From: Candidatus Marinacidobacterales bacterium | GTDB lineage: Bacteria; Acidobacteriota; Vicinamibacteria; Marinacidobacterales; DATDRI01 | Assembly: GCA_965219415.1 (NCBI GenBank) | Contig: OZ244742.1 | Coordinates: forward strand, 1,696,001-1,760,000 | Reading direction: 5' to 3' | DNA: 64,000 bases | Shown here: positions 52,694 to 56,275 of the stretch, one piece after another | Layout of the letters: each line of letters opens with the position of its first letter | Position numbering within the stretch: position 1 is the first letter of the stretch | Translations under genes and position numbers: made by a program | Notes under the pieces: generated by a model | Databases searched by the model: none | What the model saw: only the letters and a program-made list of their open reading frames with translations | Told to the model about the DNA's origin: nothing

Positions 52694-53449
52694 CTACCTC
52701 TTATCGCGTTCCACCAGCCTCAAGACGGACCTCTCTGTTTGGGGAGCCGAACGTGCCGGAACGCCTTCGGCAATCGCGACCGGTAGCGTAACCGGTGGCG
52801 CCAAAAGACCGTCGAGACCCGAAACGAACGCCTCGACCAATCGCTCGTCGAGAACCACCTGGTCCTTGACGAGAAAAGAATACGCCAATCCCCTTCGCAT
52901 CAATCCGCCCGGGGCGTGGTGTTCCGCAGGGGCGACGGCGTGAATCATCTCATGGGCCACGACGCGGCCCAGAGCGCGGGACAGACGCCTGAGCTCCCGG
53001 ATATCGAGAAGGCGAGTGGGTCGGTCGTGAATCTTCACTGCGCTTACCAAGTTTCGATAGAAGACGTACAAGGAATGAGAACGTCCACCTCCGGGGAGAA
53101 ACGCGCCCATGACATCTTCCTCCAAGCCCCAATCTGAACCGGATGGCTTGGATGGCATGAGGACGATTCGTAGCAGAACCGTGTTTCCATACAATGGGGG
53201 ATCGTCGAGCTCCGCCTCCATCCACTCGATGTCGAGGCCGACGGGACCAACGAGTTTTTCCACTTCGCGAACCATCCCCTGGAAAGTTCCATTGGGAGCC
53301 AGACCATGAGCATCGTGCCAGACCATCAGAAGCCGAGGCCCACGAGTTCGCTGTTCCTCGATGCCCTTTTGAGCACCTACCGTCTCAGTGATTCCAAACG
53401 AAAACGCCCCGATGAAAAGGACGAGCCGAACCACCCTGCCGTGAATCAT
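52694..53449 (-). CDS. secreted hypothetical protein with HExxH motif
   Basis: Signal peptide; LGRVVAHEMIHAV..HH...GLM; GAGGG RBS. Confidence 0.7.
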   Translation of the reverse strand: MIHGRVVRLVLFIGAFSFGITETVGAQKGIEEQRTRGPRLLMVWHDAHGLAPNGTFQGMVREVEKLVGPVGLDIEWMEAELDDPPLYGNTVLLRIVLMPSKPSGSDWGLEEDVMGAFLPGGGRSHSLYVFYRNLVSAVKIHDRPTRLLDIRELRRLSRALGRVVAHEMIHAVAPAEHHAPGGLMRRGLAYSFLVKDQVVLDERLVEAFVSGLDGLLAPPVTLPVAIAEGVPARSAPQTERSVLRLVERDKR

Positions 53450-53714
53450 CCCTCACCCCCATTGGCTCTCCCTCAACGTGATCTTTTATGGCTATACGTT
53501 GAGCAACGACAAAGAGATCCGCTAGAGTTCTCAGTTTTGGGTAAGGTTTTTCTCAGGCTTGGTCCTAGGGTGCCGCGTTGTGTTGGAAGAAGAACTCTTC
53601 CTCTCCGATCCCTCCCGCCGAGTGGATGGCTCCCTTTTCCACGAGAAGCTCGACGATGTGCTTGGGGCTCTTCGAAACAGATAACAACAACGCGGACGCT
53701 GTGACTTTCAGGAA

Positions 53715-54470
53715 ATGAACCGCGGAGACACGAGCAGTGCAATTCAACCGTGGGCAGAACCGGGACAGATCAGCACCGTACTGCTAGACGCCGGCAATAC
53801 ACTGGTCTTCTTGGACTACGGCGCGATCGCCGACGCGATCGAAGCAAGTGGATTCTCGATCGATGCGGCTGCACTCGAGCTCTCCGAATATCGCGCCCGC
53901 CGGCGTGTAGACCAAAAGTACCTCGAGGGTGGTTTTACCGACGCCAGCATGTGGCAATGCTACTTCGACTGGCTGATGGAGGAAGCGGGTGTATCATCCG
54001 CACCGCGACCCGAGATCTTGGAGCGACTTCGCCAACGCCATGCGGAATCCAATCTCTGGAGCCGTACCAAACCCGAAGTGCGGGACGCGATGGCGAGATT
54101 AAAGGACAGCGGTCGAATCGTCGCCGTCATCTCGAACTCAGATGGGTCCTGTCGCGAGCTGTTGCGGCGGCTAGGCCTTCTTTCCTATTGTCATGCGGTG
54201 TACGATTCGGCGGAGCTTGGAGTCGAAAAGCCTGATAAACGTATCTTCCAGATTGCGCTGCGAGACCTCACGGTTGAACCGACTCAGGCTTTGTACATAG
54301 GAGACTTGGAAGCGATCGATGTTCTCGGAGCGCGACGCGCGGGCATCCTACCGGTGCTCGCCGATCCACACCCCAGGGGAGACGCGGTGGATTTTCCGGT
54401 CCTCCGCGGTGTTAGCGAGCTACCGGACGCCCTGGGGATAGCGAACCAAACACAACTAAAGGAGCTCTAA
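53715..54470 (+). CDS. HAD-superfamily hydrolase (subfamily IA)
   Basis: LLDAGNTL, ISNSD, EKPDKRIF, IGD..DVLGA. Confidence 0.9.
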   Translation: MNRGDTSSAIQPWAEPGQISTVLLDAGNTLVFLDYGAIADAIEASGFSIDAAALELSEYRARRRVDQKYLEGGFTDASMWQCYFDWLMEEAGVSSAPRPEILERLRQRHAESNLWSRTKPEVRDAMARLKDSGRIVAVISNSDGSCRELLRRLGLLSYCHAVYDSAELGVEKPDKRIFQIALRDLTVEPTQALYIGDLEAIDVLGARRAGILPVLADPHPRGDAVDFPVLRGVSELPDALGIANQTQLKEL

Positions 54471-54473
54471 CTC

Positions 54474-55064
54474 ATGCCCCGCATCAAATGGATCACCGAC
54501 GAGGAAGCCACCGGCGAGGCGGCCGAGGTCCTCGAGGAGACCCGGCGCCGTTTCGGTGGACACTTGGGAGACGAGACCCGCTGCTTCAGTCTTCGTCCCG
54601 ACTTGATGAAATTGACCACCGACCTGTTTGTCCAAGGACATTTCCGTCCGGGTTTTCTGAACCGGCGGCAGAAGGAGATGATTGCTACCTACGTGTCGGC
54701 GGTGAATCACTGCCAGTACTGACGGGACTCCCACGCACACTTCCTGCGGGCTCAGGGAGCAGATGAGAAAGTCGCCGCGGCGGTCCAGAAAGGTGACCTC
54801 ACGGCGGTTCGAGAATCCGGCCTCGACCCCAAAGAGGTCGCGCTTGTCGAGTTGATCGACACCGTCACCCGTCACGCGCACCGCGTCACGGATGACCAGG
54901 TGCAAGGCCTCCGCGATCACGGATGGAGTGACGAGCAAATCTTCGAGGGAGTCTGGGTGGCTGCCGCCTTTGCCTATATGACGCGCGTCGTCGACGCCTT
55001 CGGAATCAATTGGAAACCAGAGATGCTCAACTCGAGCGCGATGGGCCCGAAACGAATCGATTGA
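54474..55064 (+). CDS. AhpD/carboxymuconolactone-decarboxylase-like peroxidase, probable selenoprotein (CxxU, Sec at codon 83; 196 aa)
   Basis: KEMIATYVSAVNHCQY-TGA(54720-54722)-RDSH continues in frame to DAFG...; SECIS-like hairpin downstream; AAGGAG RBS. Confidence 0.85.
54720..54759 (+). promoter_or_regulatory. candidate bacterial SECIS element
   Basis: Stem CTTCCTG(54740-54746)/CAGGGAG(54753-54759), loop CGGGCT after a 24-nt spacer from the TGA. Confidence 0.65.
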
Positions 55065-55083
55065 TATCGGTTCTTCAACGAGC

Positions 55084-55524
55084 ATGGGTTCCGGTGAGCT
55101 CGAAGCCATCTGGCTAAAGCGGATGAAGCTCGGCCCCATGGATCCTCACCGGAACGCCACGCTAAAGGCGGGCCGTGGGTTGGTCGATAACGCCGACCGA
55201 GGGGGAATGCGTCAAGTGACTTTGATGGACGCCGAGCGGTGGGCCCGCATCGAAGAGACGATCGGCTGCTCCCTCGACCCCTCGGCCCGACGGGCCAACC
55301 TTCTGGTGAGCGGTGTGAGCCTGGCACAGAGTCGGGGGCGGATCCTTCGGGTCGGCCCGTGCCGACTGCGCATCGTCGGGGAAACAAGACCGTGCGAGCG
55401 AATGGACGAAGCCTTCGGGGGGCTTAGGCGAGTGATGCAAGAAGACTGGGGCGGGGGTGCCTACGCCGAGGTGCTCGACGACGGCGATATCGTGGTGGGT
55501 GACGAGGTCCGCTGGACGGAGTAG
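55084..55524 (+). CDS. MOSC domain protein
   Basis: RQVTL, RRANLLVSG, TRPCERM, AEVLDDGDIVVGD. Confidence 0.88.
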   Translation: MGSGELEAIWLKRMKLGPMDPHRNATLKAGRGLVDNADRGGMRQVTLMDAERWARIEETIGCSLDPSARRANLLVSGVSLAQSRGRILRVGPCRLRIVGETRPCERMDEAFGGLRRVMQEDWGGGAYAEVLDDGDIVVGDEVRWTE

Positions 55525-55535
55525 GCGGCTTCACC

Positions 55536-56006
55536 TTACTCGTGAATGTGTTCCGCCAGGTATTTGTCCTTGCCGATCTCATCGACGATGTGAAGCTGGG
55601 CCTCTAGCCAGTCGACGGCTTCTTCTTCTCCCTTCAAGATCCCTTCCAGTAGCTCTCGCGTGCCGTTGTCGGCCTTGTCGCGGCAAAGCGCAATCCCGTT
55701 GTTCAATCGCTCCACGGCGGCTTTCTCCAGGTCTAGATCGGCCCTGTGCTGCTCGACGGGGTCCTCCCCCAAACTGATGGGGCCAAGGCGCTGCATGTTG
55801 GGCACACCTTCCAAGTAAAGGATCCGGTCGATGATGGCGTCGGCGTCTCGCATCTCTTCCATGGATTCTTCGCGTTTCTTCTTGGCCAGCTTTTGGTAGC
55901 CCCAGTTCGCGCACATCTTGGCGTGTGCGAAGTACTGGTTGATCGCCGTGAGCTCGGCCGTCAAAACCTCGTTCAGAGCCTCGATAACCTGTGAGTCCCC
56001 CTGCAT
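55536..56006 (-). CDS. bfr: bacterioferritin
   Basis: ELTAINQYF, EEMRDAD..RILYLEG, DNGTRELLE; AGGAAGG RBS. Confidence 0.95.
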   Translation of the reverse strand: MQGDSQVIEALNEVLTAELTAINQYFAHAKMCANWGYQKLAKKKREESMEEMRDADAIIDRILYLEGVPNMQRLGPISLGEDPVEQHRADLDLEKAAVERLNNGIALCRDKADNGTRELLEGILKGEEEAVDWLEAQLHIVDEIGKDKYLAEHIHE

Positions 56007-56099
56007 GTGCCTTCCTCCTCAGCTCTCTTCTCTTGAGCGTGGCGGGCTGGTGCGAGCGTGGAGTCGATATACTAGTCTCTCCCTGGGGGTAGAGCAACA

Positions 56100-56275
56100 G
56101 GAGCCGTCAGCCCGAGCGAAGCGCGAGCGACCCGACTTCGCCAAGGCTTCGTCGGGTCCGCCGAAGCTCTGAGATGAGTCGCTTATGCGGAGGCGGAAGT
56201 GAGTCGCGGAGCGAGAGCCGCGTTCCGCAGCGAGCCTGTCGAGCGGAGGGCTAGCCCGACCGAAGGACGGGCGCA
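56100..56275. repeat. composite palindromic REP/MITE-like element between bfd and bfr
   Basis: CCGACTTCGC-CAAG-GCTTCGTCGG-GT-CCGCCGAAGC...GCGGAGGCGG; core GGGTCCGCCGAAGCT shared with 62577-62591. Confidence 0.6.

Follow-up and report, generated by a model that had tools for sequence, protein, structure and literature searches.

Positions 54474-55064, on the forward strand of the window (the whole 64,000-nt stretch of DNA analysed here, from a Candidatus Marinacidobacterales bacterium), very probably hold one intact gene for an AhpD-like selenoprotein, in which the UGA codon at 54720-54722 would specify selenocysteine (Sec). The coding sequence is complete, with 196 amino acids and a stop; it runs from the start codon ATG (54474-54476) to the terminal stop TGA (55062-55064), and a Shine-Dalgarno-like AAGGAG, read from the sequence, lies 9 nt upstream of the ATG (54459-54464, forward strand). 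The only in-frame TGA inside the coding sequence is codon 83, and translation with TGA as Sec (U) gives 196 residues, with ...VSAVNHCQYURDSHAHF... around the codon and no other stop. The earlier note had described a single frame, split by TGA 54720-54722 and nothing else, with a 196-residue read-through product, and had expected standard gene callers to divide it. Sequence and translation bear out the frame, and the ORF list does break the gene into two pieces in the same frame, 54474-54722 (82 aa) and 54852-55064 (70 aa, from a TTG start), 378 nt apart from start to start.

The TGA also falls where it had been placed in that description, exactly at the second redox Cys, in the pattern C80-x-x-U83-x-x-x-H87. 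The redox motif C80-Q-Y-U83 (TGC CAG TAC TGA; 54711-54722, forward strand), in which the Cys80 codon is TGC 54711-54713, is read from the sequence, and Cys is invariant at both of its redox columns in the 12 homologues aligned. The alignment likewise shows as invariant the His87 of CxxUxxxH (CAC, 54732-54734, forward strand) and Glu68 (54675-54677, forward strand; 13 of 13 aligned sequences). The search query had C substituted for U and, from translation of the terminal stop, one false residue at its end; neither affected the results. An antisense ORF at 54456-55139 (227 aa) was considered as a gene and rejected, as it has no Pfam match.

By sequence profile and predicted fold, the gene product is a TIGR01926/COG2128 AhpD-like 'peroxidase-related enzyme' with the CMD fold. 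The Pfam CMD profile (PF02627) gives 59.6 bits against a gathering score of 23 (E 3.1e-16), and its best stretch, residues 42-103, spans codon 83. The NCBIfam model TIGR01926 ('peroxidase-related enzyme') aligns with residues 3-182 over profile positions 2-177 of 178 and gives 88.8 bits against a curated cut-off of 81.8, a small margin of just 7 bits; TGA-bearing relatives score 85.6-155.2 with the same model. Two other curated Sec-containing CxxU branches of the superfamily were compared, and the product lies far under the cut-off of each: NF041238 (AhpD_rel_CFYUT) gives 71.4 bits (cut-off 175), with only profile positions 216-343 aligning, and NF053654 (YciW-related) gives 30.9 bits (cut-off 310). 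NF041238 proteins are about 357 aa long, and only their C-terminal half aligns with the target, which falls outside that family.

The AlphaFold2 model, built from 13 sequences, is a single all-helical domain of ten helices (pLDDT 90.5, pTM 0.87), in which C80 immediately precedes the helix 81-93 and U83 lies at the N-terminal end of that helix. Foldseek matches the model to AhpD-like structures with TM scores of 0.75-0.82 over about 183 columns, covering both sides of the UGA (6k40 from Deinococcus radiodurans, 0.82; 2oyo, 0.81; 2prr, 0.79; 3c1l, about 0.77), and a sequence search of the PDB returns the same set of AhpD-like structures (E-values 3.5e-13 to 3.2e-08). Family profile, Pfam domain and structure matches each extend over the UGA, which makes the two ORF pieces halves of one domain. 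Orthology with Mycobacterium tuberculosis AhpD (1knc/1gu9) was also considered and is rejected by the score for TIGR00777, the model for AhpD proper (27.6 bits, below the cut-off of 191.95), and by the structural match to 1knc (TM 0.52, E 0.068); the two proteins share the CMD/AhpD superfamily and the CxxCxxxH motif.

Codon differences among three congeners, compared pairwise, are mostly synonymous on both sides of the UGA, with synonymous:non-synonymous counts of 17:2, 19:2 and 14:0 upstream and 21:3, 22:7 and 19:7 downstream. The region downstream of the UGA is, judging by these counts, under purifying selection and so appears to be translated past the TGA. This bears directly on the possibility that the UGA mainly terminates, leaving an 82-residue fragment and possibly a separate 70-residue product from TTG 54852. 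As Sec is in general inserted with low efficiency, a degree of termination at 54722 is to be expected, and the energy of the hairpin described below lies at threshold; that termination is the main outcome is nevertheless very improbable. Profile, Pfam and structural matches run across the UGA, the stretch separating the ORF pieces (residues 84-126) shows purifying selection in this frame, and an 82-residue product would have neither the catalytic Sec nor His87 and would lack six helices of the ten.

In a collection of 5.8 billion proteins there are 15 near-length homologues, the best of them 48% identical, and no near-length full-length product of the target's own orthologue group was found there. 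Twelve of the 15 were aligned (P0009, P0010 and P0014 were left out as near-duplicates or for want of a source), and all 12 have Cys at column 83; E68, C80, Y82, C83 and H87 are invariant among them. Because gene-called proteins are biased towards Cys forms, this 12 of 12 demonstrates Sec/Cys pairing and not the frequency of either form. Frequency is better seen when 61 genomes from the same class are searched in six frames. AhpD-like matches were found in 54 of them; at least one in-frame TGA is present in 79 of the 121 matches and none in the other 42, by hand count (78 of 118 with TGA when three rows from the unpublished genome G007 are left out). Two in three AhpD-like matches of the window's order hold a TGA, with up to several such genes per genome. 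In one genus (g12), each of 16 genomes out of 16 has one AhpD-like match with one TGA.

Codon 83 was placed by tblastn on 72 loci (L024-L095), from which HSPs that did not cover residues 80-90 and identical downstream sequences were dropped, leaving 61 distinct relatives of the order. At this column, where the earlier note had looked for Cys/TGA pairs, 44 relatives have TGA, 16 have TGC and one has AGC (TGA in 43 of 60 when the G007 locus, L043, is removed). Within the window's order, on these sequence counts, Sec forms of AhpD-like proteins are more numerous than Cys forms. The closest named relatives have TGA in eight cases of eight. Two congeners keep the TGA at 97% and 95% amino acid identity and about 92% nucleotide identity, and the two closest records in the named genome collection bear the title Candidatus Marinacidobacterales (Acidobacteriota, Vicinamibacteria). 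The next six (41-50% identity), the closest relatives beyond these, belong not to other Acidobacteriota but to other phyla, in records titled Eremiobacteraeota, Isosphaeraceae (two), Planctomycetota, Pirellulaceae and Pirellulales, and all six have TGA. The five loci that follow (33-38% identity) have TGC or TGT. Judged by this conservation, placement of the TGA at the Cys column exceeds chance by far.

Decay of a Cys gene, in which TGC or TGT mutated to TGA, would need one base change only, and both the splitting of the gene by standard ORF calling and the protein database, with its 48% best match and no full-length product of the orthologue group, would fit a pseudogene. Such an origin is very unlikely given the retention of TGA in the two congeners and in six of six cross-phylum relatives, the prevalence of synonymous changes downstream, the lack of further stops or frameshifts in the gene, and a strain variant that keeps the TGA.

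A different substitution is seen at greater distance: 20 alphaproteobacterial loci (L109-L128, 23-29% identity), mostly from records of Caulobacterales and Phenylobacterium, have Val at the Sec/Cys column in the motif SQFV[FY]SQHC, the CxxC site being lost or displaced.

Components for Sec decoding are present elsewhere in the window's genome. The search for selA, selB, selC and selD found selA (569.7 bits), selB (375.8), selD (328.3) and tRNA-Sec (69.7), all over their cut-offs, and ARAGORN calls a tRNA-SeC with anticodon tca; a tRNA search within the window found none, the tRNA-Sec lying elsewhere in the genome. The Rfam tRNA-Sec model (RF01852) also exceeds its gathering score in control genomes such as those of Caulobacter vibrioides, Thermus thermophilus and Thermotoga maritima, which are not known as Sec users; RF01852 by itself is therefore no proof of the Sec trait, and the ARAGORN call matters. 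The selD gene (G000:C3:3889655-3890587, forward strand) has one in-frame TGA, in the motif CAGUASK, so its product, selenophosphate synthetase, is itself a selenoprotein. The selD of congener G001 also holds one TGA, and in congener G002 only residues 72-309 were matched. The sel genes sit on contigs other than that of the window, in an assembly with 8.45% estimated contamination. In G001, selA, selB, selD, tRNA-Sec and the orthologue of the target all lie on one 6.3-Mb contig, a layout that answers the contamination concern by analogy only; G002, an assembly 91% complete, gave no selB match above the cut-off.

With this machinery in place, near-cognate or reassigned decoding of the UGA to one of the standard amino acids (Trp, Cys or Gly) is most unlikely. 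The genome uses TGA as an ordinary stop codon, which ends the target gene itself; selA, selB and other long frames have no internal TGA, and the codon stands at a redox Cys column of the kind typical of Sec/Cys pairs. An assembly or sequencing error at 54720-54722 is the least credible account of the codon, as contigs from four runs of four studies have neither TGC/TGT nor any other alternative base there (two of the four contig sets match all 701 nt exactly and could come from the source sample) and the independent assemblies G001 and G002 carry the same codon.

A variant strain, present in contigs of the other two runs (X6 and X10), departs from the window at 37 listed positions, none of them at 54720-54722; worked by hand, 33 of the 37 differences fall at third codon positions, as do 18 of the 19 downstream of the TGA. 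The 104 nt at 54714-54817, which contain both the UGA and the hairpin, show no variant-strain difference and form the longest invariant run in the gene; as a sign of constraint this is suggestive at best, being a single comparison.

If the UGA is decoded as Sec, a bacterial SECIS (bSECIS) element is expected close behind it, and a putative one is the stem-loop at 54740-54759 (forward strand; 7-bp stem, 6-nt loop, -7.5 kcal/mol). Its arms, 54740-54746 (CTTCCTG) and 54753-54759 (CAGGGAG), form 7 pairs, one of them G-U, around the loop CGGGCT (54747-54752), which has G at position 2 and lies 24 nt from the TGA; the hairpin is present in the minimum-free-energy fold. The bSECIS core, as set out in a section of a 2026 review, has an apical loop of 3-9 nt, a stem of 4-16 bp, G in the first two loop bases, a spacing of 16-37 nt from the UGA and an energy of -7.5 kcal/mol or lower (PMC13188914). 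The target hairpin lies within all of these constraints, with an energy exactly at the threshold and thus borderline, and its loop CGGGCT is not a clean match to the finer pattern N1-G-[G/U]-N-N2, with N1 and N2 pairing, that the same section gives (PMC13188914).

Hairpins of this kind have a measurable background rate. Across the window, the hairpin criterion of the earlier note selects 11.2% of all positions on one strand and 12.4% on the other and, counting TGA triplets alone, 10.8% and 10.4%. Under the published core constraints the pass rate is 5.7% for random positions (5000 drawn) and 4.7% for TGA triplets (1632 in all). The fold of the 71-nt region is no more stable than those of shuffled sequences (z = +1.16), and an Rfam scan of 54400-55100 with E up to 10 returned no SECIS family, only three chance-level matches. 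The 7-bp stem with its CGGGCT loop 24 nt past the TGA is thus as the earlier note described it, but alone it is no better than chance against this background of 5-11%. By itself the hairpin is weak evidence, and its weight comes only from conservation in relatives.

By the earlier note, relatives that never show TGA or a conserved hairpin at this position would have refuted the Sec reading; none of the refuting results that it named was obtained. Mean folding energy over the 55 nt after the codon is -19.0 in TGA forms and -18.6 in non-TGA forms; as this is equal in Sec and Cys forms, only a test for a hairpin at the right place separates them. Counting only stems at the required distance, 32 of 44 TGA forms have one with at least 7 pairs, versus 3 of 17 non-TGA forms; with the limit lowered to 5 pairs the figures are 44 of 44 versus 13 of 17. 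In the columns of the target hairpin, the six Sec orthologues from other phyla read TTCCTGC-(AGTT or GGTC)-GCAGG. All share a near-identical stem (UUCCUGC ... GCAGGR), equally far from the UGA, and in the Cys forms that come next after them the 3' arm of the stem is broken.

For the hairpin, 15 sequences (14 distinct) were aligned: the target and its group, the six orthologues, and a Sec clade of paralogues in which spacing and loop are likewise 24 nt and 6 nt. The structure used was derived from one of the aligned sequences. Over the 14 distinct sequences the helix columns are paired in 87.5% of cells, versus 36-66% with the partner slid, and three pairs are compensatory, with changes on both sides (covariation score 0.394 versus at most 0.154). 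The hairpin therefore does recur at the same columns in relatives with compensatory changes, though the three compensatory pairs separate two clades only and so amount to about one evolutionary comparison. Conserved amino acids (F-L-x-x-Q-G) could account for part of the conservation of the stem.

A mechanism can be proposed for the AhpD-like selenoprotein on this basis. SelB with Sec-tRNA(Sec) would be recruited by a SECIS stem-loop within the coding sequence while the ribosome reaches UGA 83, the SelB-binding stem-loop most likely being that at 54740-54759, 24 nt downstream of the UGA. Sec would thereby take the place of the second Cys in the C-x-x-C-x-x-x-H motif, where helix 81-93 has its N-terminus. 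Such a protein may be a selenol/thiol oxidoreductase: Sec83 would make the nucleophilic attack, with Cys80 resolving the intermediate to a selenenylsulfide and His87 and Glu68 assisting. Glu68 is presumably the proton relay of an AhpD-type active site, and reduction of the oxidized enzyme would fall to an external thiol system. In M. tuberculosis AhpD, Cys133 is the attacking nucleophile and Cys130, His137 and Glu118 are its helpers, and the spacing E68...C80-x-x-U83-x-x-x-H87 matches the pattern of that protein. The role would be detoxification of peroxides or disulfides, the enzyme serving on the substrate side either as a peroxidase itself or as the reductase of a peroxiredoxin. From the sequence we infer selenium insertion at residue 83, the hairpin used by SelB, the roles of the catalytic residues and the substrate alike.

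The nearest homologue with a studied function is DR1765, the D. radiodurans protein of structure 6k40. Its loss leads to higher sensitivity to H2O2, and the cysteines of its CxxC motif are needed for full complementation, as reported in a review (PMC8945050, citing Zhao et al. 2020). DR1765 and the 'peroxidase-related' structures 2oyo, 2prr, 3c1l and 2pfx share the CxxCxxxH site with the target (TM 0.75-0.82), but theirs is a Cys site and the target's a Sec site, at an identity of just 20-26%. M. tuberculosis AhpD is described in the same review as reducing AhpC in a lipoamide-dependent way and as having a weak activity of its own as a peroxidase (PMC8945050). Peroxidase or AhpC-reductase activity of the target would follow by analogy, from the family and from DR1765 genetics. 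Of the label Sec-peroxidase given to the gene in the earlier note, a Sec gene of the peroxidase-related family stands, and 'peroxidase' is a reading of family membership.

Sec-containing AhpD-like families had also been said to be on record, and the literature agrees (PMC1088965; PMC2398784; PMC13188914). CxxU AhpD-like proteins were introduced as a new selenoprotein family from the Sargasso Sea, with 27 sequences in COG2128, according to an excerpt of Zhang, Fomenko & Gladyshev 2005 (PMC1088965). In GOS data 'AhpD-like 1' (COG2128, CxxU) is the fourth largest family, with 299 selenoproteins and 902 Cys homologues (PMC2398784), and an excerpt from a 2006 survey lists AhpD-like (COG2128) selenoproteins in complete genomes and three selenoprotein families in Acidobacteria (PMC1794560). 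The section of the 2026 review cited above tabulates 'AhpD-like protein, TIGR01926, CxxU' (PMC13188914), and the AhpD-like family serves as the browsing example in a passage of the BSepDB paper (PMC13326102).

The target shares with this AhpD-like selenoprotein family the TIGR01926 model, CxxU with Sec at the second Cys, widespread Cys homologues and a SECIS-type hairpin after the UGA; there is no difference of kind, and the host lineage differs. A full-text literature search for 'Marinacidobacter' found no paper, so the lineage may be new for the AhpD-like family, a small increment. Family, motif and decoding mechanism are already in print, the family has been known for twenty years, and no new question is opened; the target shows each testable defining feature of the known family and adds one more case in which Sec would replace the reactive Cys of a CxxC oxidoreductase. 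As the ORF call splits the gene and the database holds no full-length product, such genes are probably under-annotated in metagenome-assembled genomes.

This marine Acidobacteriota lineage would use the Sec system for several AhpD-like paralogues. In the window's genome, a second AhpD-like gene with TGA at the CxxU column (G000:C3:5336679-5337191) scores 145.4 bits with TIGR01926 and has the motif CHYUIEHH; a third (G000:C3:3645172-3645453), under the TIGR01926 cut-off, has the motif CEYUTSIH and about 290 aa in two CMD-like halves. A tentative account, rather doubtful on the present sequence comparisons, is that a self-contained Sec-AhpD cassette, with the SECIS within the coding sequence, moves between phyla and that the order built its unusually Sec-rich set of AhpD-like paralogues from this cassette.

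The selenoprotein gene is closely flanked on the forward strand by a gene for a HAD-family hydrolase (53715-54470), whose stop lies 3 nt before the selenoprotein ATG, and by one for a MOSC-domain protein (55084-55524), which begins 19 nt past the selenoprotein stop. Each is probably co-transcribed with the selenoprotein gene. A ferritin-like gene (120.7 bits) adjoins the cluster on the opposite strand (55536-56006), and the HAD, selenoprotein, MOSC and ferritin-like genes may form a small stress-related cluster in the genus. Scanning 53200-56100 turned up no promoter-like sites; it gave three terminator-like ones, each on the minus strand, where 2.7 would be expected. Around the six cross-phylum orthologues, where 84 ORFs were scanned, the HAD-AhpD-MOSC order is absent and the neighbours differ at each locus; the order being unconserved, the operon gives no conserved functional clue. 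At one of these loci, in a record titled Planctomycetota, an ORF with EF-hand repeats and a T4_deiodinase/AhpC-TSA match (L100:1656-2945, forward strand) lies directly upstream of the Sec-AhpD orthologue; 'Deiodinase-like' is a listed bacterial selenoprotein family.
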